From the IMG/VR virus record IMGVR_UViG_3300030339_000025: a stretch of 64,000 nucleotides of DNA. One strand, written 5' to 3'. Position numbers and translations under genes: made by a program. Source of the DNA: a virus. This document shows, one piece after another, positions 1,348 to 54,692 of this stretch. The notes under the pieces are model-generated. The model was not told the origin of the DNA and searched no databases. It saw nothing but the letters and a program-made list of their open reading frames with translations. Within the stretch, counting starts at the first letter, position 1, and each line of letters starts with the position of its first letter.

Positions 1348-2237
1348 TAAATTGATTTAATTTTTTCTAATTTTTCTTTTCTTTCTGCTTTTAGTAAATC
1401 AAATTTTGCATTTAATATAAGATCAAAATCAATTGGTGTTACTTGAATGTTATGTGATTTAATATAATCATCAATTTCAGTGTTATTTTCTTCAGTCAAT
1501 CTTTTTATTACGTTATACGATTTAACTTCTTCGCCTTTTTCTTTTGCTTCTTTTTCGATTTGTTTTATAACAGAATTTCTAGCAAATCTTCTAATACGAG
1601 TTTCTTCTGATGGTATAAATTTTAATATTTTATTTATCAATTCAGAACCACGAAAATTATCATTTAATGAATTCCAATAATGATTAGGATCAAATAATTG
1701 AATTTTTATACTAAATCCTCTAACTTCATCAAATGCATACCAATCTTTTTCTCGTTGTTTCCATTGCTGTCTTGATACACTTTCGTCTGGATCACATTGA
1801 TTTTGACAATACCAGTCTTCTAAAAATTCTAATAAAATGTTTTTGTGCTCATTTACTATAATACTAGGATATACTAATATTTTTCTATTATTGATGGCTT
1901 GTATAGATATATTTAAATGAGCCATAAAATCATTTATATAAGTACATTTAGATAGAATTTTTGATGCTTGAAATAGATATGATAATATTGTTGTATCATC
2001 ATTGATTTCTATTTTTTTTATTTTATCTTTTAATTCTACTTCGGTAATTGCTTCATATTCAATCCTTTTTATTATATCATAATGTTTATCAATATGATCA
2101 GTAAAAGCAGCTGCATAACTTTTTGCTAATTTGTTTTCTGATGCTTCTTTAAATCTATCTAATCTTTTAACAATTTCGTCTTGTATAAATTTGATGCTTT
2201 TTCTAGACATCATTCCATCATATGCTTTTAAACTCAT
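1347..2237 (-). CDS. hypothetical protein
   Basis: 296-aa ORF in same-strand block, coupled to downstream gene. Confidence 0.35.
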   Translation of the reverse strand: MSLKAYDGMMSRKSIKFIQDEIVKRLDRFKEASENKLAKSYAAAFTDHIDKHYDIIKRIEYEAITEVELKDKIKKIEINDDTTILSYLFQASKILSKCTYINDFMAHLNISIQAINNRKILVYPSIIVNEHKNILLEFLEDWYCQNQCDPDESVSRQQWKQREKDWYAFDEVRGFSIKIQLFDPNHYWNSLNDNFRGSELINKILKFIPSEETRIRRFARNSVIKQIEKEAKEKGEEVKSYNVIKRLTEENNTEIDDYIKSHNIQVTPIDFDLILNAKFDLLKAERKEKLEKIKSI

Positions 2238-2239
2238 AA

Positions 2240-2641
2240 TTATAACACTTTTTTAATACAATCACTTACAATTTTACCATCATATTTTTTACCAAAAAAT
2301 TCTTTTGATTCAGCAATTATTTTACCCATATCTCGTATGGTATATAATTTTTCATGATAATATTCCTGACGATCAAAAATATTTTGCAAAAAATCTAATA
2401 CTTCTTTTTCAGTTACTTTTTCTGGCATATATGTTGAAAGTATTTTAACTTCAGAAATGTTATTACATTCTGTTGCACCTTCAATCATTCGTTTAAGTAT
2501 TTTAAGTACTTGTTCATCAGTAAGTTCTTTACTTTCTTCTCGACTCATTTCTCCTACAACTACTTTTAGCAGATTCCTTTTAGGAATATTTGTAGTCATT
2601 GATTCTTTTAAATCATTTTTAATTTGTTCTTGTAATATCAT
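2240..2641 (-). CDS. hypothetical protein
   Basis: 133-aa ORF, acidic/lysine rich. Confidence 0.3.
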   Translation of the reverse strand: MILQEQIKNDLKESMTTNIPKRNLLKVVVGEMSREESKELTDEQVLKILKRMIEGATECNNISEVKILSTYMPEKVTEKEVLDFLQNIFDRQEYYHEKLYTIRDMGKIIAESKEFFGKKYDGKIVSDCIKKVL

Positions 2642-2647
2642 TATATT

Positions 2648-3187
2648 TTATTTTTTTAATAATTCTTCTAGTAAATCCCACATTTCAATATATTCTGGTT
2701 TTTCAAAAAATTTCCAAAATGATTTTCTTCTTTTGAGCATTTTTTTAAAGTGATAATTTTCTTTACGATATAGATCCGCCATTCTACTTCCACCATTGGT
2801 ACTATATTTAACATTTGCCAATCTGTCACACAATTTGACAAAAGTTGCATATTTAGTATTTCTAATCCCCTTATAATATTTATCATTTGCTCTTTCTGCT
2901 CTGTTTCTACCTTTTTCATTAGTACAGGCGTATGCAATTTCCGCAACCATTATATTTGTTGACTTTTTAAGGTCGTTAAAGGTGACGCTAGATACATCTT
3001 CAATAATATCATGGCACCAGCAACCAGATATAACATTATTTCTATCTTTTTCTGGTATTAAGTGAATAAATAGTTTAGCAAAATATTCAGCCATTTCTAA
3101 ATGATAATCATATGAATGACCATTGTATTTTTGATTTATTGATTTGTGTGAATCAATAGCTAATTTTTTTGCGATTTCTATATTCAT
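2648..3187 (-). CDS. HD-domain phosphohydrolase
   Basis: H...HD...D metal-binding pattern (HSYDYH ... CWCHDIIED). Confidence 0.5.
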   Translation of the reverse strand: MNIEIAKKLAIDSHKSINQKYNGHSYDYHLEMAEYFAKLFIHLIPEKDRNNVISGCWCHDIIEDVSSVTFNDLKKSTNIMVAEIAYACTNEKGRNRAERANDKYYKGIRNTKYATFVKLCDRLANVKYSTNGGSRMADLYRKENYHFKKMLKRRKSFWKFFEKPEYIEMWDLLEELLKK

Positions 3188-3291
3188 GATATTTAATTTT
3201 TAATTTTTACAAATATAATAAATATATTTCAATAAACAAAATTAGTTTGAAAAATGACACAATTGAAGATTGAATTTTTATATATAGAATT

Positions 3292-3825
3292 ATGAGAATT
3301 TATAAAACTACAAATAAGATTAATGGTAAAATTTATATAGGTCAAGATAAAAATGATAGAAAAAATTATTTTGGCAGTGGTTATATTATAAAAAATGCTA
3401 TAAAAAAATATGGTAAATCTAATTTCACTAAAGATATATTAGAGGTTTGCAACAATGAAAAAGAATTAAATGATAGAGAATACTTTTGGATTAAATTTTT
3501 TGATTCTAAAAATCCAAAAATAGGGTATAATATAAAAGACGGAGGAGGATATGTAGGAAATAAATTGGATATACACGCAAATAGAATAAATATTTTGAAA
3601 AAAATATCAGAAAATCATGCTGATGTTAGTGGTGATAAAAATCCAATGTATGGAAAAAAACATAGCGATGAGTCAAAGAAAAATATGTCAATAAATACTA
3701 AAAACACGTTTAAAAATAATCCTAATTTAATTAAAAATCATAGTATCACCATGAAGGAAAAATCCAAAGGTAGAAATAATTCTAATTATAATCCAACTGA
3801 AGTTTTACAAATTAGAATCTTGTAA
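3292..3825 (+). CDS. GIY-YIG homing endonuclease with NUMOD3-like repeats
   Basis: N-terminal RIYK...KIYIGQ (GIY/YIG) motifs; C-terminal NPMYGKKHSDESKKNMS repeats typical of phage Seg/I-Tev-like HEGs; lone plus-strand gene inside a minus-strand block. Confidence 0.7.
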   Translation: MRIYKTTNKINGKIYIGQDKNDRKNYFGSGYIIKNAIKKYGKSNFTKDILEVCNNEKELNDREYFWIKFFDSKNPKIGYNIKDGGGYVGNKLDIHANRINILKKISENHADVSGDKNPMYGKKHSDESKKNMSINTKNTFKNNPNLIKNHSITMKEKSKGRNNSNYNPTEVLQIRIL

Positions 3826-3830
3826 TTTCA

Positions 3831-4238
3831 TTAGTTTAGATCCCAACAAAGTTCTGTCATAAATCTGTGATTATCTGGATATTCAGAAATTTCCTTATCA
3901 GCTGCATCTAAAAACATTTTTAGATCATTATTTTTTAGGCATAGTTGGTCATAATGATTTAATTTAGCAATATGAATTATATAATCATAATCTTCATCTC
4001 TTAAGTGCCCTTTTAACGGTATAATTCTACCTACACAACTTTCCCAATGAATATTTTTACCATCAAAAGTAATATAATACCAATCTTCACCATCATCACC
4101 AATGGCTATTAATCTTTCAGTTTTAAAAAATGCATCAGTCATAATATGTTGACCTTTTAATCTGTTAAATTCTTCTAAAATTATTTTAAGATTACCATCT
4201 GGATTTTGTAGATGCTCTTCCCATTCTTGTTTGTTCAT
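3831..4238 (-). CDS. hypothetical protein
   Basis: 135-aa ORF downstream of gmd. Confidence 0.3.
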   Translation of the reverse strand: MNKQEWEEHLQNPDGNLKIILEEFNRLKGQHIMTDAFFKTERLIAIGDDGEDWYYITFDGKNIHWESCVGRIIPLKGHLRDEDYDYIIHIAKLNHYDQLCLKNNDLKMFLDAADKEISEYPDNHRFMTELCWDLN

Positions 4239-4248
4239 AATAAAAATT

Positions 4249-5247
4249 TTAATTATTTAAATCGTATTCCATCATAATTTTAACCAATTCTTTAAATTTA
4301 ACTTTTGATTCCCAGCCTAAAACATTTTTTGCTTTTGTTGAGTTTCCTAAAAGTAAATCTACTTCTGATGGTCTGAAGTATTTAGAATCTATTTTAATTA
4401 CAGTTTTACCTGTTTTTTTATCTATTCCTATTTCATCATTACCAGAGCCTTTCCATTCAATTTCAACATGAATATGCTTAGAAGCTTCTTCAATAAATTC
4501 CCTATTTGTGTGTCCTTCTCCTGTTGCAATAACAAAATCATCTGGCTCTGAATGTTCTAAAATTTTTATCATGGCATCACAATATTCTGGTGCATATCCC
4601 CAATCTCTTGAACTATCAATATTTCCTAAATGAATAGGCTCTCCTGTTTTTGTCCATTTAACTAAACCTTGAGTTATTTTTTTTGTAACAAAATTACCAC
4701 CCCGTCTTTCTGATTCATGATTAAATAATATTCCATTTGAAATAAACATATTATAAGAATCTCTATAATTTTTAGAAATCCAAAATGAATATAATTTTGC
4801 AACGCCATACGGTGATCTAGGATGAAAAGGTGTAGATTCCGTTTGTGGTATTTCTTGAACTTTTCCAAATAATTCTGATGTTGTAGCATTATAAACTCTA
4901 CATTCTGGACAATGCTTTTTAACAGCTTCTAAAATCATTAAAGTACCTAATCCATCAGTTTGAGCTGTGTATAAAGGCAAAAAGAATGATATTTGTACGT
5001 GACTTTGAGCTGCTAAATTGTAAATTCTATCCGGTTTTATTTTGTTAATTATTTCATCTATACTTAATGGATCAGTTAAATCTCCATAATGCAAATTTAG
5101 TTTATCAAATATGTGATCTATTCTACTGGTATTAAATGAGCTTGATCTTCTTATAACTCCATGAACTTCATTTCCTTGTTCTAATAATTTTTCCGCTAAA
5201 TAGCTCCCATCTTGACCTGTCACTCCTGTTATTAATATTTTTTTCAT
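4249..5247 (-). CDS. gmd: GDP-mannose 4,6-dehydratase
   Basis: N-terminal ILITGVTGQDGSYLAEKLL Rossmann motif and near full-length similarity to Gmd. Confidence 0.9.
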   Translation of the reverse strand: MKKILITGVTGQDGSYLAEKLLEQGNEVHGVIRRSSSFNTSRIDHIFDKLNLHYGDLTDPLSIDEIINKIKPDRIYNLAAQSHVQISFFLPLYTAQTDGLGTLMILEAVKKHCPECRVYNATTSELFGKVQEIPQTESTPFHPRSPYGVAKLYSFWISKNYRDSYNMFISNGILFNHESERRGGNFVTKKITQGLVKWTKTGEPIHLGNIDSSRDWGYAPEYCDAMIKILEHSEPDDFVIATGEGHTNREFIEEASKHIHVEIEWKGSGNDEIGIDKKTGKTVIKIDSKYFRPSEVDLLLGNSTKAKNVLGWESKVKFKELVKIMMEYDLNN

Positions 5248-5254
5248 TTATTTT

Positions 5255-6184
5255 TTATTTTAATGTACTTAGATAATTTTTATAAGTTTCTATTATGCCT
5301 TCTTTTAATTCTATTGTATGAAACCACCCTAATGAATGTATTTTAGATACATCTAATAATTTTTTTGGAGTTCCATCAGGTTTAGAAGAATCAAAAAATA
5401 TGTCACCTTCAAACCCTATATATTTTTTCATTAGAAATGCTAATTCCTTTATTGATAAATCTGTACCAGAACCAACATTTATTATTTCACTATCATTATA
5501 ATTTTCCATTAAAAATATACAAGCATCAGCTAGATCATCAACATGTAAAAATTCTCTATAAGGCGAGCCTGTTCCCCAAAGTATTATATATTTATCACCT
5601 CTAATTTTAGCTTCATGAATTTTCCTTATTAATGCTGGAAATACATGTGAATTTTCTAAATGGTAAGAATCGTTTATTCCATATAGATTTGTTGGCATTA
5701 CAGAAATATAATTAGTATTATATTGTTTATTATATGATTGACACATTTTAATGCCAGCAATCTTTGCAATTGAATATGCATCATTTGTTTCTTCTAAATA
5801 GCCAGATAATAAGTATTCTTCTTTAATTGGTTGAGTACAATTTTTAGGATAAATACAACTTGATCCTAAAAACAATAATTTTTTTATATTAAACTTATAA
5901 CAAGCGTTTATTACATTTGCTTCAACCATTAAATTTTGATAAATAAATTCGGCTGGATAAAGATTATTTGCCATAATTCCTCCAACTTTAGCAGCAGCTA
6001 AAAATACATACTCTGGTTTTTCATTTTTAAAAAAATTATAAGTTTTTTTTTGATTTGTGAGATCAACCTCTTTATGACTTACAGTAATTATATTTGTGTA
6101 TCCCTGATTTAATAATTCTCTTAATATTGCACTACCGACCATTCCATTATGACCAGCTACAAAAATTTTACTATTTAATTCCAT
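5255..6184 (-). CDS. fcl: GDP-L-fucose synthase (GDP-4-keto-6-deoxymannose 3,5-epimerase/4-reductase)
   Basis: IFVAGHNGMVGSAI..., LAAAKVGGI, LFLGSSCIYPK, SVMPTNLYG, KPDGTPRKLLDVSK — nearly colinear with enterobacterial Fcl. Confidence 0.85.
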   Translation of the reverse strand: MELNSKIFVAGHNGMVGSAILRELLNQGYTNIITVSHKEVDLTNQKKTYNFFKNEKPEYVFLAAAKVGGIMANNLYPAEFIYQNLMVEANVINACYKFNIKKLLFLGSSCIYPKNCTQPIKEEYLLSGYLEETNDAYSIAKIAGIKMCQSYNKQYNTNYISVMPTNLYGINDSYHLENSHVFPALIRKIHEAKIRGDKYIILWGTGSPYREFLHVDDLADACIFLMENYNDSEIINVGSGTDLSIKELAFLMKKYIGFEGDIFFDSSKPDGTPKKLLDVSKIHSLGWFHTIELKEGIIETYKNYLSTLK

Positions 6185-6196
6185 ATTTAATTTCTT

Positions 6197-6541
6197 TTAT
6201 TTGTGTCCTTTATAAAGTTTTACAGAGTCTTCAATTAGTGATTTTCCTTCTATAATTGATTTTTCCATCATTCTATTAATAGCCTCTACATATTTTGGCC
6301 TTTTTTGTTTAAAACAAATGTCAATTTTTCTTTTTAAGTCTGCAATTTCTATATCTGATGTTGATGATCCAATTGCATCTTCTAAATACCACATTCTACA
6401 ATGTAATATAGATAATTTTTCTATAACTTCACCAATATTATCAGTCTCAATAATATCTGACGGCATATCTACTTTTATTGATTTATTTAATGTATTATTA
6501 ATTGTTTCTTTAATAATATCTTCTATTCGTTCTCCTATCAT
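6197..6541 (-). CDS. hypothetical protein in glycan operon
   Basis: 114-aa ORF between fcl and DegT-like gene. Confidence 0.3.
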   Translation of the reverse strand: MIGERIEDIIKETINNTLNKSIKVDMPSDIIETDNIGEVIEKLSILHCRMWYLEDAIGSSTSDIEIADLKRKIDICFKQKRPKYVEAINRMMEKSIIEGKSLIEDSVKLYKGHK

Positions 6542-6542
6542 G

Positions 6543-7697
6543 TTACATATTTTTATTTATTATATCACAAATATACTCTACTTCTTTTAGACCTATATCT
6601 GGATTATTTGGTACATATAGACCATATTTATCTACTATATCTGCAAAGTTAAAAGATTGCTTTCCATATATTTTTATCCAATAAGGTTGATTTCCAATAG
6701 ATCCACAGATTAATGGTCTACAATCAACTCCACCTTTATTTAATTCTTCTGCAATTTTTTTTCTATTTGGATGAATTATAGGATAAGCAAAATTTGAAAT
6801 GTATGTATTTGGAAGATCAGTTATCTTCCAGTAATCATTTTTAATTAATGCATTATAATAGTAATAATTATATTGTCTTATATTTACAATTTTATCAACT
6901 TTATCTATTTGATTTATACCTATGAATGCCTGCAAATCAGTTGATCTTAGATTAAATCCAGGATAATAGAATGTATATAAATCTTTAAATTCATCTATTT
7001 CAAATCCTTTTTTTAATTTTGATTTAAACGAATCATCTAAATCCCTATTCCATCCGTGAGCCCTAATAGATTTTAAAATGTTATATAATTCATAGTCATC
7101 TGTTGTGATCATTCCGCCTTCTATTGTTGATAAATGATGGCCAAAATAGAATGAAAATGAACTCATTAAACCAAATGATCCAGTTTTTATTCCATTATAA
7201 GTTGAACCAATACTTTCACAAGAATCTTCTAACAAAATAATATTATTTTGATCACATAATTCTATTATTTCGTTCATTTTATTTGGAAATCCTAGCACAT
7301 GAACCAATATTACAACAGAAGGATTGTATTCTTTGATTAATCTTTTTAAATCATTAATATCTAAACCAAGTGTTTCTTTATCACATTCACAAAGAATAGG
7401 CGTTAGTCCAAATTGAATAATTGGAGTTACTGTTGTTGTCCATGATACTGCTGGTACTATAATATTATTATTTTTCAATTTACCAGAAATTAATAAACTA
7501 TAAATCATAGCAAGATTTGCTGATGAACCAGAATTAACATATACTGAATATTTTCTATTTTGATATTTAGAAAATTTTTCTTCAAATTCTATAGTAAGTT
7601 TATTCTTGGTAAGAATTGGATTTGTTTTTAACCATTCTATTAAAAGATTAATATCATTAGCATCAATAGTATCCTTAACTAAAGTTATTCGATTCAT
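6543..7697 (-). CDS. DegT/DnrJ/EryC1-family PLP/PMP enzyme, His-variant (ColD/E1-like sugar 3-dehydratase candidate)
   Basis: DegT-family fold signature; position of the usual PLP-lysine reads FSFYFGHHLSTIEGG (HH instead of K), the hallmark of GDP-4-keto-6-deoxymannose 3-dehydratase ColD / AscC. Confidence 0.65.
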   Translation of the reverse strand: MNRITLVKDTIDANDINLLIEWLKTNPILTKNKLTIEFEEKFSKYQNRKYSVYVNSGSSANLAMIYSLLISGKLKNNNIIVPAVSWTTTVTPIIQFGLTPILCECDKETLGLDINDLKRLIKEYNPSVVILVHVLGFPNKMNEIIELCDQNNIILLEDSCESIGSTYNGIKTGSFGLMSSFSFYFGHHLSTIEGGMITTDDYELYNILKSIRAHGWNRDLDDSFKSKLKKGFEIDEFKDLYTFYYPGFNLRSTDLQAFIGINQIDKVDKIVNIRQYNYYYYNALIKNDYWKITDLPNTYISNFAYPIIHPNRKKIAEELNKGGVDCRPLICGSIGNQPYWIKIYGKQSFNFADIVDKYGLYVPNNPDIGLKEVEYICDIINKNM

Positions 7698-8463
7698 TTC
7701 TTGTCTTAATTTTTTCTATCTCAGAGATAGTATCTTCATATAGATTATTATATAGAATTTGTTTAGATTTTAAGTAAAAAATATGTTCATTTGAAGTAAT
7801 ATTTTCTTTATAATCTTCGGTTACAAATTCATCATATTTCATATTAAAATGTGAATATAAAGTTCTAATAAAATCATTAACAAAAATTAATCTACCTGAA
7901 CCAATTATATTATCTGAAGTGGCTTTTATAGATTGATCTACAATAAATTTAGGATGTAATAATTCTCTATAAAAATAAGTATTACCAATCGTTATTTTCT
8001 TTTCATTAATAATGGAATCAAAAATTTTAGAAAATAAAAACCCTTCTTTCCGATAAATAGAATTAAAATTAAAAGGATGAAGAATTATAATATTTGAAAA
8101 TAATTTACTTATTATATTAATTAACAATCTTTTAGAATCAATATAATCTGTAGATCTGTAATCGTAAGGTGTACTTATATCAATAGCACCATCATAATTA
8201 TTCCATAGTTCACTTGTACCGTATATTATAATATTATTTGATGTCTTACTAAAATGCCTTATTATATTAATAATATAATCTACATTAGTATCTAAAAATA
8301 ATTGTTTATTATTTTGTATAAATGTTCTTTGTTCTGCTAAGCAAATATAAACTCTATCATATCTTTTATTTGTAAATTGAATATTCCTTGACGATATTTT
8401 TTCATAATTATCTGGAAAATAATATGATAATTGTGATGTGTTACCTATTACTAAATTTTTCAT
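7675..8463 (-). CDS. hypothetical protein, possible Rossmann-fold sugar-modifying enzyme
   Basis: N-terminal LVIGNTSQLS weak dinucleotide-binding-like motif; position in glycan operon. Confidence 0.25.
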   Translation of the reverse strand: MKNLVIGNTSQLSYYFPDNYEKISSRNIQFTNKRYDRVYICLAEQRTFIQNNKQLFLDTNVDYIINIIRHFSKTSNNIIIYGTSELWNNYDGAIDISTPYDYRSTDYIDSKRLLINIISKLFSNIIILHPFNFNSIYRKEGFLFSKIFDSIINEKKITIGNTYFYRELLHPKFIVDQSIKATSDNIIGSGRLIFVNDFIRTLYSHFNMKYDEFVTEDYKENITSNEHIFYLKSKQILYNNLYEDTISEIEKIKTRNESNNFS

Positions 8464-8480
8464 TTTTATTTAATTTTTAT

Positions 8481-9641
8481 TTATAATATTATTTCATGTA
8501 TAGTTTCATTAAAATAACTAAATTTTAATTTTACTTTACTTTCATCTACAATTATTCTATTTATAATAAAAAAATAATTTACGTTTTTTGCTATATGAGG
8601 ATATAATGCACCATATGATATATCAAAATTGCCATCATTATTTAAATCTATATAAGAATTAATGGTAATATTATATAAATCTTTATAACATTGAAAATTA
8701 ACTTGGTTATTTGTTCTTAATATATTTAATTCTTTAATATATTTTTTATTAAAAAATAAATTATATTTTTTAATAATTTCATCATTAATAATATCAAATA
8801 TATTATCACTATCATTATTAGTAATTAATATTCTGTCAGATTTACTAAATTCAGAGTAAAAAGCTATAATATAACTTGATGTTATTGCAATAAATGTTTT
8901 ATTAAAATCGTTGAAATTATGTTTTGTTAATGTATAACAATATGGACCAGATGCTCTACCAATTATTATATTACAAAACGTTGATAAATAAGATATTTCA
9001 TTCAAATCTGGTAAATTACAATTTATAAGATTGTTAGTAAATAAAATATTATCTTTTACTATATCTATTTTTTTAGTTAATATAAAATCAATATTTGGAT
9101 ATATATCTGATAATTTGTTAATTATAGAATCAAGTAAAATATTTGATTGAGCTGACAACACATCACCATTGCAAATTAGAATTTTAAATTTTTCATTATT
9201 TTTAATATATTTATCTACATTTTCTATTTCGAATTTTGAATAATCTATTTCTGGAATGTAAGAATTTTTTTCATTTAATTGTATAGTGAGTTTATTGTAA
9301 ATAAAAGAATAATATTTATAATATGCATCAAGTAAGGATTTATATGCTAACCATTCATTATCTTTTAATGCGAAATAATAAAGAATATTTGTTCTCATAA
9401 AGTGAATGTTTATATAAACATCTTGATTTATCTTATAATATGTTTGATCTATAAAACAATTTTCATTTAATTTTCCAAATTTAAGATTTTGTATATCAGA
9501 TAATAATTTTGACGATGATTTTTTTTCTAATATATAATATTCATCAAAATCAGTTTTATATATTATATCTTTCATAAATTCTCTATAATAATGTAAATCA
9601 CCATTGTGACAATTGAAATTATTAAAATAAAGTATTTTCAT
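8481..9641 (-). CDS. hypothetical protein in glycan operon
   Basis: 386-aa ORF, Asn/Ile/Tyr-rich. Confidence 0.3.
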   Translation of the reverse strand: MKILYFNNFNCHNGDLHYYREFMKDIIYKTDFDEYYILEKKSSSKLLSDIQNLKFGKLNENCFIDQTYYKINQDVYINIHFMRTNILYYFALKDNEWLAYKSLLDAYYKYYSFIYNKLTIQLNEKNSYIPEIDYSKFEIENVDKYIKNNEKFKILICNGDVLSAQSNILLDSIINKLSDIYPNIDFILTKKIDIVKDNILFTNNLINCNLPDLNEISYLSTFCNIIIGRASGPYCYTLTKHNFNDFNKTFIAITSSYIIAFYSEFSKSDRILITNNDSDNIFDIINDEIIKKYNLFFNKKYIKELNILRTNNQVNFQCYKDLYNITINSYIDLNNDGNFDISYGALYPHIAKNVNYFFIINRIIVDESKVKLKFSYFNETIHEIIL

Positions 9642-10842
9642 TTATATTTAATGTTTTTAATATAGATTTATAAACTTGATCTGGCGTTGGATGGCATTCA
9701 TACGTTAATTTATTTAAATAACAAATACCAGATTTTAATATTTGAGTACTATTGGTTTGATCAATTGATATTTTTGGATTTGCTAGGCATTCAGCTTGAC
9801 ATATACCTCTAACATAACTTAAATTATAATTTTCTATTCCTTTCCTTTTTCTATAATAACTTGTGTCCCAAGATGTTGACAATTCTGTAATATGATTATC
9901 TAAATTACAAAGTGATAATATATATAATCCATTATTCATAGTTACAAATGTTTTACTTTTATTTATTATATGATAAGCTTGTGAAATTGTATTTTGACAA
10001 GGATTATTTAATAAATTTAATCCATTTTTAATTTGAATATTAGAAAATTTTTTTGTTAGATTAGAATCTAAATATGTTTCTTTTCCTATTGCAACTATTG
10101 GAATATGCTCTTGTATTAATTCTATAAATTTTTGCCAATTGTTGTGACCCCAAGTTCTTTCAGGTTCTGTTTCAGATGGATTTATACAAATAAAATTTTC
10201 AGGTAAATTTTTAATATTCTCAAAAGGATCTGGATAAAATTCCATATCAAGTTCATTTGATTTTAATTGAAATCCACAATTATATGCACAAATTTGTTTA
10301 TGATCTATCAATCTCCAATTTGTATTCATAAGATTAAATAAGTGATGTATATCAAAATTAGTATCAAATGAATCTAATAATTGATTTAAATTATTATTTA
10401 TTTGTATAATTTTCTCAATATATGGATTATTAATAAATGCTGATGATATATAGGTTAATATTATAATCTTTTGATTATATATTTCTGACATTTTTTTTAT
10501 TGTTGGCGTTGCTGCTAAATTATCACCAATACCAACTTCTGAATGTAAAACTAAAACTTGCTTTTTTATTTTTTGATTATAAATAGTTTTAAAATTAAAA
10601 AATTGATCCTTAATTATATTATTGTTATATATAATCTCAACCTTTAACCCCTTTAATTCACTTAATTGTGTTGTTGAATACCATAATTCATTATGATCAA
10701 AAAAAGATAATGTACTATATAATAATATTGTACTATTATTATAAGAATTCCAATCATATAAATTAATTTTAGCTTTTAAAGTATAATCACAAGAGATATA
10801 TGTTTTGTTTTCATCTAAATTACATCTTACATTAAAATTCAT
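9622..10842 (-). CDS. glycosyltransferase, GT9 (heptosyltransferase)-like
   Basis: VLVLHSEVGIGDNLAATPTIKK resembles GT9 N-terminal GD...TP motif; weak. Confidence 0.35.
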   Translation of the reverse strand: MNFNVRCNLDENKTYISCDYTLKAKINLYDWNSYNNSTILLYSTLSFFDHNELWYSTTQLSELKGLKVEIIYNNNIIKDQFFNFKTIYNQKIKKQVLVLHSEVGIGDNLAATPTIKKMSEIYNQKIIILTYISSAFINNPYIEKIIQINNNLNQLLDSFDTNFDIHHLFNLMNTNWRLIDHKQICAYNCGFQLKSNELDMEFYPDPFENIKNLPENFICINPSETEPERTWGHNNWQKFIELIQEHIPIVAIGKETYLDSNLTKKFSNIQIKNGLNLLNNPCQNTISQAYHIINKSKTFVTMNNGLYILSLCNLDNHITELSTSWDTSYYRKRKGIENYNLSYVRGICQAECLANPKISIDQTNSTQILKSGICYLNKLTYECHPTPDQVYKSILKTLNINENTLF

Positions 10843-12974: not shown

Positions 12975-15900
12975 TTAATTAAATAGGTATTTAATACCAA
13001 ACATCATTTGCCATCTTGAACTAATACCTGTTGAATTTTGGTATGGTTGAGTAAATGGAGTTGTTCCTGTCTGGAATGGAAGCGAAAATGAAGGAGTTTT
13101 TCCATCTGCAGCGAGACCTTCATATTTTAATATGTTAGTAGCTGTAGGAATTTTAACAACACCCCAATCTCTGTTAATTAAGTTTCCAGCATTAATCATA
13201 TCCACTGAAAACTTAAGTGTGTGTGTCTTAAATTTAATATCTTGTGTAATATTTAAATCTAAGTGACTAAAGTATGGCGCTACAGTTGCATTTCTTTTAG
13301 AGTATTGACCCCTGTGAGTATTAAGATAGGTTGAATTAGAAATAAAAGCGTCTAATTGTGACCAAATTTGTGCAGATGTTCTTGTGTCAGTAACACCTGT
13401 TGTAATTGTACCTAAACCTCCAGAGCCGACTTTAACTAGGTTGATGTCAGCAATTGTTTTTGGAATATACATCAAGTCATTACCTGAATTACCATCACCA
13501 TTTAAGTCACCATTATAAACATATGAATTTACACCGTTATTAGTTAATTCGTAAATTGCTCCAAATGTTGTAGCAAGATATTTTCCTTCATTTAGTTTGT
13601 AAGCGAAGTTGGCAATAAGTCTGTTTGGCTGATAATATGACGCATAACCCAAATTAGCCGCATTAGGATCCTGATTAGAAACAGGTACTGCACTCCATAA
13701 TGACGAGGCTGTTGATCCATATTCTGCGGTGTTCTTGGATACTGAACGTGTGTATGCTATACCATAGGCTAAATTTTCAGTAGTTCTTTGAATTTTTGCA
13801 GTCAAAGTGTAAACATAGCCTTTACTTGAATTACTCATTAAAATTGCATTACCTATATTAGGATTTTCTAAGGTCGCTGTTGGCGTTCCTGCATAATATT
13901 TGTTAGTATTTGCAACCGAAGTTAAGTAACGGGTTCTGTTATCAACACCACCTAATGCAAATCCGTTGGACTCATTTAAATTTATGTTAGAGTAATAAAC
14001 TGCATTAATGTCTTGTGTATAATTGTATTCAGCGCCAATCATCCAGCCATCTTCCAATCTCTTATCAATAGCTAAAGATGACTTCCAAGCTGTTGGATAT
14101 TTAAAGTTGCTAGAAACCAAAGCAGTACTATAAGAAGCATTAGCAGATCCAGCTGTTGGTCTTAAAGCATTAGGATCAACATTAAACGCTGTTTTGTTAG
14201 CTGCATTGGTGAATGAACCAAATTGAATACCATTGTTTGAAGCCTGGTTAGAAATCCAAACGAATGGTGGAGGTCCTGCGAAGATACCAGTACCTCCTCT
14301 GACTTGTAATGTTTTATCACCTTTAGGATTCCAGTTGAAACCTAATCTTGGTGAAACAATAATATTATTCATTGGAGCTTTACCAATGTTATAAGTCGAT
14401 CCATCTTTGAATTTTAATGCATCAAATGTTGGATTATCTGTCATTGACTGTTTGTAGAAGGTTTCATCAAGTCTCAAGCCAAAAGTTAAGGTGAAATCAT
14501 TTGATACTTTCCACTTATCCTGTATGAACTGAGATAATTCTGTTGATCCGGCATTAGCCCAAGGAAATTCACCATTAGGTAAAGCTGAATATTGCAAGTA
14601 GTATGATTTAGCATTTAACTTTCCGTTTTTTGCTGAATTATAAAAGTCTGTCAAGCTATTGAATTGATAAACACCTTGATAACCAGGCGCAAATGCGTTT
14701 TGATATTTTTTAATTGAGTTTTGAGTACCTACTGTGAGTTCATGCGCACCTTTATAATAAGTTAAGATGTCATTTAATTGATAAACGTCTGTATTCAATA
14801 CGTTATTGTAAGTGTACATTTCGTAACCAAAGGTTGTATAAATATTACCATTGTTTAAAATATCAACTAATGGGAAAGTTCCACTACTAGAATGAGGAGA
14901 ACGGAAATCTCTCAATGCAGTATAACCAATTTGTAATTTATTTGATAGCCTATTATTGAAATGAGTATTCAATTCAGCAATAAAAATATTAAAGTTATTA
15001 TTGATTACATAACCACTACCATAGAAAGGCATTGAATAGGTACCTGGCTGCCCACCAGTTGTTTGACCAGAGCCTGGTCTTGAAGTAGATGCAAATTGAT
15101 CGGATGATGATTTTAAGTAGTTGTATTTTAATGTAAAAGTATTCTTACTATTAATGTTCCAGTCTAATTTTGCAGTAATTTTATCAGAATAGGTTTTGAA
15201 AGTATAACCTTGAAAAGCACCTGGATCATATCCAAACTTGGTCTTTAAGAAACTAGATAAAGCTGATAAAGTGTCAGCGTTTGCTTGAGAATAGTTTCCA
15301 CCAGCAGCATGAGATGCGTCTGAAGGCAGCATGGAAGTCGCTGGTGCATCTTGTCTAACTTGTTCTCCACTTACGAAGAAAAATAATTTGTCTTTGATAA
15401 TTGGACCTCCTAAACTAAATCCTTTGATAGAATAATCAAAAGGAGTTTTTACAACTGTTGTTGGACCAACATTGTAACCTAAATAATTTTCATTCCTAGA
15501 ATATTGATAAATAGTTCCTTTGAAAGTATTTGTTCCACTTTTAGTTACGGTGTTAACGCCTGTTCCAGCAAATCCACCTTGCTTAACATCATATGGTGAT
15601 ACGTTAACTTGAATTTGTTCAATAGCTTCTAATGAAATTGGTTGTGCGGATGTTTGTCCACCTAAGATAGATGATAGACCAAATGAGTTATTAAAATTAG
15701 CTCCATCAACTGTCATATTATTATATTGACTACTTCTGCCGCCAATATTCAATCCTTGGGAGGTAGGTTCTAATTTTACAAAATCTTGAATTGAACGATT
15801 TATTGTTGGTAAACGATCAACTTGAGCTCTTGTTATTAACTCCTGAGAACCAGTTCTTGAACTACTAAATGTCTTGTCTTGAACGCCTTTTACAATAACT

Positions 15901-16250
15901 TCTCCTACTTGGATCGCTTCATCAGTAAGTTCAAAATTTTGTTTAAATGTTTGACCTAAATTCAGAAAGATATTGTTTATTTTTTCTGATTTAAGTCCAA
16001 CAAAAGCTGTTGTTAAAGTATATGGCCCACCAATTTTTAAATTTGGTAAGTTATAACGACCATCAGTTCTAGTCGTTGTCATATACTTAGTGCCTGTTGG
16101 AACATGAACTGCCATTACTACAACATCTTGTAATGGCGACTTGCCTTCTAAAATTGTTCCTGAAATTTCAGAAGTGGTTTCTTGTGATTTTGCTATTATT
16201 GAAAACAATATAAGCATTATCACTAACATCACTCTTTTTAATTTTCTCAT
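12975..16250 (-). CDS. TonB-dependent outer-membrane receptor, SusC/RagA-like
   Basis: Signal peptide MRKLKRVMLVIMLILFSIIA. Carboxypeptidase-regulatory-like N-domain, plug and a large beta-barrel. C-terminal ...GIKYLFN aromatic terminus. Confidence 0.8.
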   Translation of the reverse strand: MRKLKRVMLVIMLILFSIIAKSQETTSEISGTILEGKSPLQDVVVMAVHVPTGTKYMTTTRTDGRYNLPNLKIGGPYTLTTAFVGLKSEKINNIFLNLGQTFKQNFELTDEAIQVGEVIVKGVQDKTFSSSRTGSQELITRAQVDRLPTINRSIQDFVKLEPTSQGLNIGGRSSQYNNMTVDGANFNNSFGLSSILGGQTSAQPISLEAIEQIQVNVSPYDVKQGGFAGTGVNTVTKSGTNTFKGTIYQYSRNENYLGYNVGPTTVVKTPFDYSIKGFSLGGPIIKDKLFFFVSGEQVRQDAPATSMLPSDASHAAGGNYSQANADTLSALSSFLKTKFGYDPGAFQGYTFKTYSDKITAKLDWNINSKNTFTLKYNYLKSSSDQFASTSRPGSGQTTGGQPGTYSMPFYGSGYVINNNFNIFIAELNTHFNNRLSNKLQIGYTALRDFRSPHSSSGTFPLVDILNNGNIYTTFGYEMYTYNNVLNTDVYQLNDILTYYKGAHELTVGTQNSIKKYQNAFAPGYQGVYQFNSLTDFYNSAKNGKLNAKSYYLQYSALPNGEFPWANAGSTELSQFIQDKWKVSNDFTLTFGLRLDETFYKQSMTDNPTFDALKFKDGSTYNIGKAPMNNIIVSPRLGFNWNPKGDKTLQVRGGTGIFAGPPPFVWISNQASNNGIQFGSFTNAANKTAFNVDPNALRPTAGSANASYSTALVSSNFKYPTAWKSSLAIDKRLEDGWMIGAEYNYTQDINAVYYSNINLNESNGFALGGVDNRTRYLTSVANTNKYYAGTPTATLENPNIGNAILMSNSSKGYVYTLTAKIQRTTENLAYGIAYTRSVSKNTAEYGSTASSLWSAVPVSNQDPNAANLGYASYYQPNRLIANFAYKLNEGKYLATTFGAIYELTNNGVNSYVYNGDLNGDGNSGNDLMYIPKTIADINLVKVGSGGLGTITTGVTDTRTSAQIWSQLDAFISNSTYLNTHRGQYSKRNATVAPYFSHLDLNITQDIKFKTHTLKFSVDMINAGNLINRDWGVVKIPTATNILKYEGLAADGKTPSFSLPFQTGTTPFTQPYQNSTGISSRWQMMFGIKYLFN

Positions 16251-16924: not shown

Positions 16925-18199
16925 TTAGATATTTTTTATTATTTCAAGTGCTTTATTAGCAGAATTCTTCCAAGAAAATTCAGTTCTAATTAATTCTGAA
17001 TCTTCTAAAGCTTTCTTTTTATATTTCCAATAATTAACATAAACATCTCTCATCACTTTAGACAAATCATCAAAATCTGGTTCATAATAATTTCCTACAC
17101 CATTTGGTATAGGTTTTTCATCTAATATTTTAATTGGATGACCTTTTCCTTTTGCAAATTCTAATTGAGCACTACAGTTAGAATATATTGATGGTGTGCC
17201 ACAAGCCATAGATTCACACAATGGAAGATTCCAGCCTTCTGATCTTGAACAAGATAAAAATACATGACCATTTTTTAAATAATTAACATAATCTTGTCTA
17301 TTTACAAAATGTAAAATTTTTAATCTATTATCTTTAAAATTATAATGATTTAATCTTTCTTCTGTTGTTTTTAAACCATCATTACTATAATCAGCATTAT
17401 CTACTGCTAATATTAAATCAACTGGTTCTTCTGGCTTGAATGTTTTTAGAAATGTTGAAATAATTTCTGTTGTGGCTTTTCTATATTCCCATCTTCCAAA
17501 TAATACAAATTTGAATCTATTATCTTTATACATATCTAAATTATAATTAAAAAAATCTGGATTAAATATAGAATCATCAACAGCTTCAGGAACAATAAAA
17601 ATTTTATCTGTTGGATAACCTTGTTCTATAGCACATTGTTTTTGCCATTTTGATGGACACCAAAATTGATCAAATTTTTTAAGTATTTCAAAGAAAGTGT
17701 TATCATATTTTGTTGATTCCCAAACATTATATGCTATTTTAAATCCAGTATATTTATCAAGGCAATAATAATAATGGTGATTAGTTTCACTTAAAAGTAA
17801 ATCTATTTTTGATAAATTTGAATATTTTGCTTCTTCATTAACTTCATAATCACATAATCCAGATCCATAACTATTTTTTGATCCTTGATTACAATATAAA
17901 GTTTGTATATTTATTAGTTTTCTCTGATAATCAGTAATATATGTTTCTTTTGAGTGAGGATCATTATATCTACCATTTGAGTTAATTGATCCTAGTCCAT
18001 TCCAAGTTTTTCCTACTGTAAAATTTCTAATTTTTAATGGTGTTTTATAACTTAATGCGGTAAAGAAATCTCTAGCGTGTGCATTATAACCTGTTTGACC
18101 AATAAAACTTGTATGCCCTTGTATAAAAAAATCATTCATTTTTATTTTTTTATTTTTATAATTAATCCAAACATTGGAATTGAAAAATTGGATATCCAA
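16925..18199 (-). CDS. glycosyltransferase family 1 (GT4-type)
   Basis: C-terminal SRSEGWNLPLCESMACGTP motif (E-x7-E GT1 signature). Confidence 0.6.
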   Translation of the reverse strand: MDIQFFNSNVWINYKNKKIKMNDFFIQGHTSFIGQTGYNAHARDFFTALSYKTPLKIRNFTVGKTWNGLGSINSNGRYNDPHSKETYITDYQRKLINIQTLYCNQGSKNSYGSGLCDYEVNEEAKYSNLSKIDLLLSETNHHYYYCLDKYTGFKIAYNVWESTKYDNTFFEILKKFDQFWCPSKWQKQCAIEQGYPTDKIFIVPEAVDDSIFNPDFFNYNLDMYKDNRFKFVLFGRWEYRKATTEIISTFLKTFKPEEPVDLILAVDNADYSNDGLKTTEERLNHYNFKDNRLKILHFVNRQDYVNYLKNGHVFLSCSRSEGWNLPLCESMACGTPSIYSNCSAQLEFAKGKGHPIKILDEKPIPNGVGNYYEPDFDDLSKVMRDVYVNYWKYKKKALEDSELIRTEFSWKNSANKALEIIKNI

Positions 18200-26713: not shown

Positions 26714-26770
26714 AGTATGTGTTTAATTGTTTAATAGTACAAAGATAAGGAAAAATTTTGATATGACAAA

Positions 26771-50329: not shown

Positions 50330-50653
50330 TTACCATGAGTAACTTACATATTCAATTTCATTATCTTCCCAAACTTTATATACCGCATTAATAAATGGCT
50401 CAAGCCAATCTTTACCATCTTCCTTAACCCATTCAATTTTACATTCAGCACTTTCGCCCAAATCAACAGACTGAATTGAATCATTGGTTAATTCTGAATT
50501 AAAATAGTTTAGCCATTCATGCCATAAATCTTTATAATCACCACCAATCACGTTATGATAATCTCTGAAAAGGTTTTCTTTAATGCCCATTTCTTTACAT
50601 ATCTCAGATTTAATATCTGACCAATCAAAAACTACTATTGTTTTATTTTTCAT
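50330..50653 (-). CDS. hypothetical protein
   Basis: 107-aa Trp-rich ORF. Confidence 0.3.
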   Translation of the reverse strand: MKNKTIVVFDWSDIKSEICKEMGIKENLFRDYHNVIGGDYKDLWHEWLNYFNSELTNDSIQSVDLGESAECKIEWVKEDGKDWLEPFINAVYKVWEDNEIEYVSYSW

Positions 50654-51108
50654 CTTTTAAATTTCTTGATATAAACTATTAATATTTTTATTTTATTGTC
50701 GTCCAATTTTTTATTATAAGATGGCATATTATTTTCACCATTTAATAATACATAATAAATATATTTATCATTGTGAGTTTCTTTTGTTAAATCAAATGGG
50801 CAAATAGTTGGATTTAATCTTGCTTTAACACCGTCACCTTTACCATCTTCACCATGACAAAATTTACAATTTGTTTTATATAAATTTTTATCTTTAAGTT
50901 CTTTAAGAGTCACAATTTGGCTCAAATAAATTTTATCAGGATTTGTATCATTTATTTCTACATGAGTAATTGGAAGCATTTCGTAAATACTATCCTTTAA
51001 TACTATTGTGCTTGATTTTTTAATATCTTGTTCCTGTTTCTTAAATATAGCAAACCAAGATATCCAAATGAAAAGAAAAAATAAAGAAAAGAAAACAACT
51101 TTTTTCAT
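50650..51108 (-). CDS. class I c-type cytochrome (c553/c6-like) with N-terminal membrane anchor/signal
   Basis: CKFCHG heme-binding CxxCH; downstream NNMPSY Met-ligand region and LDDNKIKILIVYI resembling c553 C-terminus; hydrophobic N-terminus. Confidence 0.65.
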   Translation of the reverse strand: MKKVVFFSLFFLFIWISWFAIFKKQEQDIKKSSTIVLKDSIYEMLPITHVEINDTNPDKIYLSQIVTLKELKDKNLYKTNCKFCHGEDGKGDGVKARLNPTICPFDLTKETHNDKYIYYVLLNGENNMPSYNKKLDDNKIKILIVYIKKFKR

Positions 51109-51125
51109 AATATGATTTTTTATTT

Positions 51126-51476
51126 TTAAGCTAAAACTTTTTTATTTGCTTTTGTTTTAATATCGTCTAAAATTTTTGCAATTTTTGTTAAGCATTTTTC
51201 AGAATTTTCAATAGTGAATTTTCTAATATTTACTTCTTTAATAGATTTTGTAACACATTCAACTTCCCCTTTATATGTTACACTCATAATGAAATATCTG
51301 CTATTTTCCATTATTCCATTAGACCAAGTGCTTGACTTATCAAGACTAAAAGTTAAAAAAATGGTTGCTTTATTTTCACCGCCTAATGTTGATACTTTAG
51401 TAGATGAATAAGGAAACCTCTTTTGAAGCTCTTTTTTGATACTTCCCTCTAACATTTTAATTTCTGTATAGTTCAT
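51126..51476 (-). CDS. hypothetical protein
   Basis: 116-aa ORF. Confidence 0.3.
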   Translation of the reverse strand: MNYTEIKMLEGSIKKELQKRFPYSSTKVSTLGGENKATIFLTFSLDKSSTWSNGIMENSRYFIMSVTYKGEVECVTKSIKEVNIRKFTIENSEKCLTKIAKILDDIKTKANKKVLA

Positions 51477-51539
51477 ATTATTCTTTTTAAGTGTACAACA
51501 AAGATACTATTTTTATACGAGACCAACAAATTTATTTTA

Positions 51540-51899: not shown

Positions 51900-52796
51900 T
51901 TATTCATTTTCGTAATTTAAAAAATCTTTAATATTTTTCCATTCTTTATAAAAAATCCAAGGATTACTTGGTATTTCATTTGGTTTATCATTTTTACAAA
52001 ATTTTACCCAATCTCTATATGTTTTTAAGTTTTTATCTTTTAAATATAATTTTGATTGATCGTATGTGAAATAATTAACTTTATTATTTTTTCTTTTTCT
52101 ATTTTTATCATAACCTAGCCAATCTTGCCAATTTATCCATCCTATATTTTTATATTCAATATTTGGTGCTGAAGGTATGTTATTTGGTTTTTCGCCTGAA
52201 TTACAATATATAGTCCATTCCAAATTACTACCTAAATTTAATTTTTTTACAAAATTTTTAGCATCTTCATATTGTAAAAATATTTTATTCTTATTTGAAA
52301 CAATTTCCGTACCTAACCAATCTGACCAACTAACCCATCCGCTATATTTATAATATTCATCTGGTCTTTTTGGTAATTCATTCGGCATTTTTTTATATTT
52401 TGATAATAATCTCCAATTTAATGTTGTTTTTATATTTAAACTTCTTGAAATAATCTTTGCTTCATCATATGTTAATTTATATAAAATCATTTGTGGACTA
52501 CGCCCACCAATCAATAAATTAGTTAATCTATGACCATTTTCTTTATAAAAATTAATCCAATATATTTCCCTTTCTTCCCAATTATATATGGTGCATTCTT
52601 CAATAATTTCAAAAACAATTTCTATATTTTGTTCTTGTGACAAACGAATCCAATTAAGTTTATGATATGAAAATAATCTTATTTTTTCTTTTAAATGTTC
52701 TTTTAATCTATTCAAAGGACGACAAGTTTTACCAATATATCTAAATTCATCTGAGCCTAAATTTTTTAATCCATATATAAATATTTTTCTATCCAT
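51900..52796 (-). CDS. GIY-YIG endonuclease with three C-terminal P..IP..P..Y..GW..W.DWLG repeats
   Basis: N-terminal KIFIYGL...RYIGKT GIY-YIG; three ~35-aa repeats. Confidence 0.55.
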   Translation of the reverse strand: MDRKIFIYGLKNLGSDEFRYIGKTCRPLNRLKEHLKEKIRLFSYHKLNWIRLSQEQNIEIVFEIIEECTIYNWEEREIYWINFYKENGHRLTNLLIGGRSPQMILYKLTYDEAKIISRSLNIKTTLNWRLLSKYKKMPNELPKRPDEYYKYSGWVSWSDWLGTEIVSNKNKIFLQYEDAKNFVKKLNLGSNLEWTIYCNSGEKPNNIPSAPNIEYKNIGWINWQDWLGYDKNRKRKNNKVNYFTYDQSKLYLKDKNLKTYRDWVKFCKNDKPNEIPSNPWIFYKEWKNIKDFLNYENE

Positions 52797-54565: not shown

Positions 54566-54692
54566 AATTATAAAAAATTAAAATTCATTTAATGATGAGA
54601 CAAAAGTACAAAAAAATTTAATATAAACAAATAATAAATTTGAAATAATTTGAATTATAAAATATTTTTATTATTTTTGTTAAAAATGAAAA

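Follow-up and report, generated by a model that had tools for sequence, protein, structure and literature searches.

Cytochrome cy of Rhodobacter and the cytochromes c550 and c551 of Bacillus are built from an N-terminal anchor (a lipid or a helix), a flexible linker and a class I cytochrome c domain, and they carry electrons between quinol:cytochrome c oxidoreductase and cbb3- or caa3-type oxidases. Among viruses, cyanophages carry the electron carriers plastocyanin and ferredoxin, and to our knowledge the known phage electron-carrier genes are mostly photosynthetic, as these are, or very host-like recent captures. Here, we analyzed a stretch of viral DNA of 64,000 nucleotides (IMG/VR record IMGVR_UViG_3300030339_000025; the whole stretch is called the window) that encodes a small c-type cytochrome with an N-terminal membrane anchor. 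By analogy of architecture, tethered shuttles of the cy, c550 and c551 type appear to be its best functional counterpart, although no specific sequence relationship to cytochrome cy was found (CcoP-cy fusion 6xkx_p, E value 0.07) and the phyla are different.

The best solved matches by sequence and fold together are the Kuenenia cytochromes c-552 Kustc0562 and Kustc0563 (7o38 and 5mxy; PMC8388095), with template modelling (TM) scores of 0.79-0.81 normalised to the target and a root mean square deviation (rmsd) of 1.9-2.2 Å. Like the phage domain, they are monoheme class I carriers with His/Met ligands and about 85 residues; unlike the phage protein, they are soluble proteins of the planctomycete anammoxosome that lack a membrane tether, and identity is 24-32%. 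A second close structure is ActE, a one-heme lipoprotein that belongs to Alternative Complex III and is present in the respiratory chain of Bacteroidota; it is likewise a membrane-tethered monoheme class I domain (6btm_E of Flavobacterium johnsoniae, 6f0k_E of Rhodothermus marinus and 6lod_E of Roseiflexus). Its fold matches with TM scores of 0.71-0.75 normalised to the query and an rmsd of about 2 Å, and the sequence match has an E value of 4e-5 for 6f0k_E, while that to Flavobacterium ActE is not significant (E value 0.7). ActE is, however, a fixed subunit encoded in an act operon, whereas the phage gene has no act neighbours.

The phages carrying amoC encode a NapC/NirT multiheme cytochrome (bioRxiv 10.64898/2026.06.18.733297). 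This protein and the cyanophage carriers represent the same concept as the cytochrome described here, that of a host-derived electron-transfer protein sustaining energy metabolism during infection. They have other folds and cofactors or are multiheme quinol dehydrogenases, they serve in other hosts, and they group closely with host homologs; by contrast, the phage cytochrome forms an old phage-specific lineage that is 35-42% identical to cellular proteins.

The gene encodes a class I c-type cytochrome

The preliminary description of this DNA, made from the sequence alone, had proposed a class I c-type cytochrome with a CxxCH heme motif and a distal methionine, and the list of open reading frames (ORFs) gives the gene at exactly the coordinates named there. 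The positions of the motifs were checked by reading codons in the raw sequence.

50650..51108, minus strand: complete cytochrome c gene, 152 amino acids (aa) plus stop codon (ORF list; PF13442 and PF00034 above their cutoffs)
50851..50868, minus strand: heme attachment motif CKFCHG, aa 81-86, with C81, C84 and the proximal ligand H85 (read from the sequence)
50716..50733, minus strand: NNMPSY, aa 126-131, with the distal axial ligand M128 (read from the sequence; alignment to 7o38)
50653..50922, minus strand: class I cytochrome c domain, aa 63-152 (AlphaFold2 domain model and Foldseek)

Profile searches with hidden Markov models (HMMs), which the preliminary description had suggested, placed the protein in Pfam PF13442 (Cytochrome_CBB3; E value 1.6e-11, 44.8 bits, cutoff 27) and PF00034 (Cytochrom_C; 26.5 bits, cutoff 21.3), both above the gathering threshold. 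C81, C84 and H85 do not vary among the 79 relatives aligned. M128 is invariant within the phage family and at least 90% conserved across the 79 relatives, outgroups included, so that the second axial ligand is both present and conserved. The heme-binding residues are kept in relatives whose identity ranges from 35 to 67%. In addition, a CxxCH motif occurs just once in the 19,715 residues encoded by 113 non-overlapping ORFs of the window, about 0.1 being expected from composition. The closest solved structure by sequence is Kuenenia stuttgartiensis cytochrome c-552 Kustc0562 (7o38, E value 9.5e-10), and this alignment spans the whole domain, pairing CxxCH with CxxCH and NNMPSY with NKMPAW. Further sequence matches in the PDB are cytochrome c subunits of the bc1 complex, ActE of Alternative Complex III and CcoP. 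Pfam, the PDB alignment and the family alignment therefore all bear out the original proposal, and the gene product is a real class I c-type cytochrome.

The predicted structure agrees with this identity. The AlphaFold2 model of the domain alone (aa 55-152, 79 sequences) reached a predicted local distance difference test (pLDDT) of 85 and a predicted TM score (pTM) of 0.74 and has the all-helical class I fold, so the confident prediction is consistent with a cytochrome. A Foldseek search against the PDB returned cytochrome c domains throughout the best 50 matches listed, with a best rmsd of 1.8-2.2 Å. Structures superposing at about 2 Å are Kustc0562 (7o38), Kustc0563 (5mxy), Thioalkalivibrio c552, the ActE chains 6lod_E, 6f0k_E and 6btm_E, and Bacillus pasteurii c553, as against about 4.4-7.3 Å for cytochrome c6 structures.

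We also asked which named cytochrome the protein resembles most. NCBIfam gave domain-level matches below threshold to CcoP, QcrC, c6, c550 and c551, and since all of them are sub-threshold, the protein is assigned to none of these named equivalogs. Cytochrome c6 (PetJ) was rejected (NF045930, 28.2 bits against a cutoff of 135; poor superposition of c6 structures), as was CcoP (TIGR00782, 35.6 bits against 179.95, matching its second heme domain only), considering the single CxxCH and the absence of cco neighbours. ActE has a similar fold, but its identity was discarded too, as the window protein lacks a lipobox and no act genes are nearby. Of the earlier wording "c553/c6-like", the c553 half is supported by the superposition of the Bacillus pasteurii protein and the c6 half fails on both profile and fold; "c552/ActE/c553-like" is the better label.

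An N-terminal anchor and a tether precede the domain

Two further segments make up the N-terminal part of the protein.

51043..51099, minus strand: N-terminal hydrophobic anchor VVFFSLFFLFIWISWFAIF, aa 4-22, after MKK (mean Kyte-Doolittle hydropathy 2.5 over 19 residues)
50923..51042, minus strand: poorly conserved, acidic tether, aa 23-62, predicted to be disordered (pLDDT; gap-rich, variable alignment)

The AlphaFold2 model of the full-length protein (18 sequences) was poor overall (pLDDT 55), and it contains an N-terminal helix at aa 2-33, the first 20 residues of the protein having pLDDT above 80, followed by a stretch, aa 30-61, with pLDDT below 50. The hydrophobic anchor proposed earlier is thus present, as a 19-residue stretch and a predicted helix. 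The lipobox that had been suggested as a further check is absent. There is no Cys before aa 81, and neither a lipobox nor a small-x-small cleavage site was found in the window protein by rules based on sequence pattern; by these rules, the protein does not qualify as a signal peptidase II lipoprotein. Most likely, the anchor is an uncleaved signal anchor with its N-terminus inside, a topology that would place the domain in the periplasm. The tether is probably disordered according to the model, and its isoelectric point is 4.9 versus 9.3 for the domain.

Other members of the family are anchored differently. A lipobox of Bacteroidota type (L/I/F-x-S/A-C, for example LVSC-G, ISC-N or FTSC-D) is found in 37 of 58 members, with a median of 12 residues in the hydrophobic region up to the Cys, while the other 21, the window protein included, have a longer uncharged run with a median of 19 residues. 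The presence of a lipobox in some members and a long anchor in the rest indicates that membrane tethering with the domain outside is the conserved feature. With its helix (2-33), disordered stretch (30-61) and single folded domain (63-152), the protein matches the architecture of cy-type shuttles.

The cytochrome belongs to a family found in huge phages

The identical protein occurs on 23 metagenome contigs from several samples; JGI 3300028738 and 3300029989 and ENA ERZ27248700 contain the contig. A sequence search retrieved 18 relatives and a profile search about 65 clusters at 101 bits or more; in the profile search, cellular proteins scored at most 61 bits, leaving a clear gap. When 1.84 billion representatives were searched with the profile, about 20 proteins, mostly single-domain, scored at least about 100 bits among the matches listed. 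Eight genomic contexts were inspected, namely the window, L007 (59 kb), L009 (26 kb), LR756501, two IMG/VR contigs (147 and 155 kb) and contigs of 92 and 66 kb, and all eight are dense regions of small ORFs resembling huge-phage DNA, with genes for Cpn60, ClpB, a sigma factor, thymidylate synthase, helicases and giant ORFs. We looked for a conserved gene neighbour or partner, and the flanking genes differ in every one of these phage contexts.

The family is marked by a short signature next to a cysteine.

50797..50802, minus strand: family signature C103-P104 within ICPFDLTK, invariant in the family (P0045 reads CPYNL)

The pattern [IL]CP[FYH]DL[TS]K[EI] retrieved no relative of the cytochrome from 185,579 genomes (one per species). 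Because P0045 has CPYNL, a family defined by the motif only seemed non-monophyletic. Two members, P0003 (222 aa) and P0019 (190 aa), are tandem diheme proteins in which each domain copy carries the CP signature. PHROGs holds no family for the cytochrome, the BFVD set of viral structures gave no structural match (best E value 3.0), and literature searches on phage or viral cytochrome c found no description of this family.

We had considered Cys103 as a phage-specific extra cysteine, acting as a heme-regulatory Cys-Pro or as an alternative ligand, and dropped the idea as the residue is common in cellular homologs: in Bacteroidota proteins this position is often Cys (DTEC-GDF, DISCGDF) and elsewhere S, V, M, I or P. 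Only the Pro after Cys103 and a one-residue insertion are phage-specific at the signature. Kuenenia Kustc0562 has an aligned Cys as well, which is not discussed in its paper (PMC8388095).

The only match to the cytochrome in a collection of 50,697 phage records is LR756501/LR756503 (50.6% identity), a 735 kb genome published by Al-Shayeb et al. 2020. The LR756501 homolog is a 138-aa lipoprotein encoded 2.5 kb from a 755-aa ORF matching large-terminase PHROGs. A second protein of the window shows the same relatedness.

30782..33193, minus strand: 803-aa vault-like protein with major-vault-protein shoulder and repeat domains (domain matches)

Full-length matches to it, at 50-53% identity, were found in the same collection only in LR756500 (462 kb) and LR756501/LR756503. 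A vault-like protein is conserved in these huge phages. Judged by these protein similarities, we take the window to be part of a huge-phage genome whose relatives are LR756500 and LR756501 (462-735 kb). The largest huge-phage genomes have been placed in a "Mahaphage" clade with predicted Bacteroidetes hosts (PMC7162821), and the word "cytochrome" is absent from that paper.

Bacteroidota are the probable source of the cytochrome and the probable host

The nearest sequence relatives are small cytochromes c of Bacteroidota, in Chitinophagaceae, Ferruginibacter, Bacteroidia and metagenome-assembled genomes (MAGs) of Flavobacteriaceae. We scanned genomes with a hand-built degenerate DNA pattern for CK.CHG..GKGDG.KA, which occurred in at least 120 genome stretches; among the matches listed, all 80 are from Bacteroidota (Chitinophagaceae, Ferruginibacter, Bacteroidales, Flavobacteriaceae, Prolixibacteraceae and others). 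The identity of cellular homologs to the window domain is typically 35-42% (median 36%), and their scores are at most 67 bits, versus 99-157 for phage homologs. In a neighbour-joining tree rooted on a diheme outgroup, the phage family comes out as a single clade in 88 of 100 bootstraps, and the Bacteroidota proteins form its sister group. The phage and Bacteroidota cytochromes have in common CK.CHG..GKGDG.KA, the methionine of the MP motif and often Cys103, and the Bacteroidota proteins resemble the phage protein in being exported and 125-160 aa long. On the contrary, their signal peptide looks cleavable and they contain a PWxVP..K.K.NP segment, unlike the phage copies, and lack the CP[FYH]DL signature with its one-residue insertion. 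They also belong to a conserved respiratory operon, whereas the phage genes are isolated, in surroundings that vary, and their products are tethered by a lipid or a helix. The gene is encoded on a phage genome and derived from a host metabolic gene, as the Bacteroidota sister group shows, which makes it a candidate auxiliary metabolic gene. Its composition (GC content 0.23, and 0.15 at third codon positions) is close to that of the window (0.25), the GC content of a captured receptor gene described below being 0.34; such phage-like composition fits an old acquisition and not a recent capture.

The cellular operons give a picture of the electron transfer in which this type of cytochrome takes part. 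Cellular homologs are found directly after NrfC/DsrO-like iron-sulfur (FeS) and NrfD/DsrP-like membrane subunits; at other loci, they adjoin multiheme cytochromes, cytochrome b and a fused ResB-CcsA, some with Crp/Fnr-type regulators. Location beside quinol-oxidising modules and ResB-CcsA implies that the cellular type takes electrons from a quinol module and is matured by System II. As a side observation, a trio of genes is conserved before the Bacteroidota homologs, coding for the NrfC/DsrO-like FeS protein, the NrfD/DsrP-like membrane protein and a third protein (183-328 aa) that belongs to no known family. From its sequence, the trio looks like an uncharacterised quinol:cytochrome c oxidoreductase module, and it is found at the following loci.

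L014, 6116..6520: conserved trio locus
L066, 1869..5706: conserved trio locus
L045, 1787..5761: conserved trio locus
L041, 4746..7517: conserved trio locus

A clue to the host comes from a gene of the window that resembles bacterial genes much more closely.

12975..16250, minus strand: 1091-aa TonB-dependent-receptor-like barrel (CarboxypepD_reg, Plug and OMP_b-brl_4; domain matches)

The protein is 85-94% identical to products of cellular genes named Prolixibacteraceae, Mariniphaga and Bacteroidia. A homolog at 91% identity is surrounded by ordinary chromosomal genes (NadA, Ddl and HisRS), and the phage gene shares 87.6% DNA identity with it over 3.27 kb. The GC content of the receptor gene lies between that of the phage (0.25) and that of the bacterial locus (0.38). 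Such similarity points to a recent capture of a host gene and is a strong host clue, suggesting that the host resembles Prolixibacteraceae (order Marinilabiliales). Two small cytochromes c from the Pfam family of the phage protein are encoded in a Prolixibacteraceae MAG. Taken together, the captured receptor, the scarcity of Shine-Dalgarno sites and the presence of Bacteroidota promoters (both described below) point to a host within Bacteroidia.

A periplasmic electron shuttle is the preferred role

Starting from the identity, fold, anchor, phage context, family structure and Bacteroidota affinity of the cytochrome, all established here, we infer how it would be exported, how it would receive heme in the host, what its redox partners would be and what the phage would gain. 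With moderate confidence, we propose a membrane-tethered monoheme His/Met phage cytochrome of old Bacteroidota derivation that acts as a periplasmic shuttle and uses host maturation and host complexes to sustain respiration. A phage ancestor would have acquired the gene long ago from a Bacteroidota host, and selection for heme binding would have kept it. During infection, it would be transcribed from a Bacteroidota-type promoter, and the product would be exported by Sec and receive heme from the System II (CcsBA) of the host. A single N-terminal transmembrane helix and a flexible tether of about 40 residues would hold the domain at the periplasmic face of the host inner membrane. There, it could accept electrons from a host quinol:cytochrome c oxidoreductase, either an NrfC/NrfD-type or an Alternative Complex III-type module, and pass them on, as a tethered one-electron shuttle, to a periplasmic or terminal acceptor of the host such as a cbb3- or caa3-type oxidase. 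Respiration and proton-motive force would in this way be kept up through the long and costly replication of a huge phage.

Two observations underlie this model. First, no CcsBA and no NrfD homolog was found in the huge phages of the collection, CcsBA matches being present only in short "Bacteriophage sp." faecal contigs; therefore, the phage cytochrome must depend on host maturation and host partners. Second, its architecture matches that of cytochrome cy, Bacillus c550/c551 and ActE, for which reason we read it as a tethered one-electron shuttle. The protein may, as the preliminary description proposed, redirect host respiratory electron flow.

Several points weigh against this role. No conserved gene neighbour among the phage contexts hints at a partner, and since cellular relatives are merely 35-42% identical, their partners are not simply transferable to the phage protein. 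The CP[FYH]DL signature and the one-residue insertion could mean an altered partner or function. Moreover, the host is resolved no further than a probable family, and, as the window has no structural gene, its phage status rests on relatedness and gene content.

Among the alternatives, the one that survives best, although we consider it unlikely, is that the cytochrome serves an anaerobic or alternative branch, in which an NrfC/NrfD-type quinol dehydrogenase would deliver electrons through it to a periplasmic reductase (for nitrite, nitrous oxide or similar), so that the electron flow of the host would be diverted in low-oxygen habitats. The operons of the nearest cellular relatives, with their NrfC/DsrO-like and NrfD/DsrP-like subunits and, in some cases, multiheme cytochromes and Crp/Fnr-type regulators, are in line with this possibility, as are the membership of the probable host family Prolixibacteraceae in Bacteroidia and the fact that the closest solved structures are carriers of an anaerobe, Kuenenia. 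On the other hand, no reductase gene was seen beside any phage copy or in the 8 kb cellular loci inspected, and the cellular similarity from which the argument is drawn is just 35-42%. This alternative differs from the preferred shuttle in the acceptor alone, a point that sequence cannot settle.

A non-respiratory periplasmic heme protein, involved in scavenging of reactive oxygen species, heme or iron holding, redox sensing or an envelope change that blocks superinfection, also seems improbable to us. The absence of conserved partner genes nearby is compatible with it, the family-specific invariant Cys-Pro and the insertion might indicate a changed function, and the captured TonB-dependent-receptor-like gene implies that the phage remodels the envelope. 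However, the protein retains the full architecture of known tethered shuttles, its invariant His and Met ligands favour simple electron transfer over catalysis or ligand binding, and Cys103, which is common in cellular homologs and alternates with S, V, M, I and P, is probably structural.

Far less probable, and largely refuted, is that the contig is not phage DNA at all and represents an AT-rich bacterial fragment or a mis-assembly, the cytochrome being an ordinary cellular gene. No capsid, portal or terminase gene was found within the 64 kb of the window, and cell-like genes are present (TonB-dependent-receptor-like, sugar-nucleotide enzymes, RCC1, vault-like). Nevertheless, curated huge-phage genomes hold homologs of both the cytochrome and the vault-like protein, once beside a terminase gene; two cytochrome homologs lie on the IMG/VR viral contigs of 147 and 155 kb; the family signature motif is absent from the 185,579 species genomes; and the same locus was assembled independently in many samples. 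In addition, the window contains homologs of T4 30.3, Y16D, RNA ligase, SegE-type and NUMOD3 homing endonucleases, endonuclease VII and endolysin, listed together with Dam and N6/N4 methylases, NT5C and NUDIX, which upholds the earlier remark that the cytochrome stands among phage-type genes. The window has a GC content of 25% and no tRNAs.

Finally, the notion that CxxCH is a chance or zinc-binding motif in a non-cytochrome protein has next to no probability and is already refuted by HMM scores exceeding curated cutoffs, a solved-cytochrome alignment covering the full domain with its Met ligand, a class I fold predicted at pLDDT 85 and the lone CxxCH of the window against 0.1 expected.

Significance of a phage-specific cytochrome lineage

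The class I fold and its ligands are ordinary, and phage-borne electron carriers are an existing idea. The novelty lies in where the gene occurs and how it evolved, as a phage-restricted, old and diversified lineage in the largest known phages. A broader proposal, which we make tentatively, is that Bacteroidota huge phages have long kept their own lineage of tethered c-type cytochromes, monophyletic, adapted in composition and diversified into lipoprotein, helix-anchored and diheme forms, as a phage-made component installed in the periplasmic electron transport of the host. If true, this would be the first phage-specific family of respiratory c-type cytochromes, and respiration with oxygen or nitrogen oxides in wetlands and lakes might be affected. 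A phage cytochrome of respiratory type needs periplasmic export and the heme-attachment machinery of the host, and it has been kept by a clade of the largest phages. If the role proposed above holds, Bacteroidota huge phages would actively maintain or rewire the respiratory chain of the host. This matters for the question of how phages of several hundred kilobases meet the cost of replication, and for the cycling of carbon and nitrogen in the oxygen-poor freshwater and peat environments from which related phages are known. As the cytochrome is small and easily expressed, the idea is directly testable.

Gene neighbourhood and expression signals

Around the cytochrome gene, we found the following features.

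51126..51476, minus strand: upstream gene, 116 aa, phrog_3308, function unknown, ending 17 nt before the cytochrome start
50330..50653, minus strand: downstream gene, 107 aa, no family match, its ATG overlapping the cytochrome TGA as ATGA
51499..51530, minus strand: Bacteroidota-type promoter TTTG-N20-TATCTTTG in the spacer upstream of the 116-aa gene (pattern search; putative promoter role)

The ATGA overlap suggests translational coupling between the cytochrome and the 107-aa gene, which is not kept beside the cytochrome in the other phages examined. A probable transcription unit, as read from the sequence, comprises the promoter, the 116-aa gene, the cytochrome and the 107-aa gene. Perfect promoters of this type were found by pattern search at these positions, which include the one above.

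3210..3240, minus strand: perfect Bacteroidota-type promoter
26740..26770, minus strand: perfect Bacteroidota-type promoter
51499..51530, minus strand: perfect Bacteroidota-type promoter, upstream of the 116-aa gene
54601..54631, minus strand: perfect Bacteroidota-type promoter
54649..54679, plus strand: perfect Bacteroidota-type promoter

The full pattern TTTG-N19-21-TAnnTTTG occurs six times in the window versus 3.7 expected, which is not above chance overall; in five of the six cases, the match occupies an intergenic spacer, and a gene of the same strand follows directly. Upstream of window genes, the -7 element of Bacteroidota (TAnnTTTG) is enriched threefold, and a Shine-Dalgarno-like motif precedes 1 of 105 window genes, the share in coding controls being 6%. 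As far as these motif counts indicate, the phage seems to rely on expression signals of the Bacteroidota type, like those of its host.

Beyond this unit, the T4 gene 30.3 homolog (PF08010; 49850..50318, minus strand) is split into two overlapping ORFs of 78 and 112 aa. The boundaries of the second ORF vary between assemblies of the locus (95 or 79 aa), and the split suggests a frameshift or a variable site. On the other side, a 298-aa ORF (51900..52796, minus strand) with no Pfam or PHROG match contains three GW(V/I)xWxDWLG repeats; its N-terminus is GIY-YIG-like by eye, and in the assembly L001 it is divided into ORFs of 139 and 162 aa.

Elsewhere in the window, there is a 438-aa ORF (34512..35828) to which the phage collection contains no match. 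A 774-aa protein (60285..62609, plus strand) consists almost wholly of RCC1 repeats (13; PF25390, 575 bits), with a weak N-terminal match to RHS repeats. A sugar-nucleotide and glycosylation cluster occupies 224..10842 and 16925..18199, with a GC content as low as 0.19 at 8-10 kb, and encodes a GDP-mannose 4,6-dehydratase, an epimerase, a DegT-type aminotransferase, a SIS-domain protein and glycosyltransferases GT2 and GT4. In the related phage contig L137, the cytochrome is embedded in a similar sugar-nucleotide cluster.

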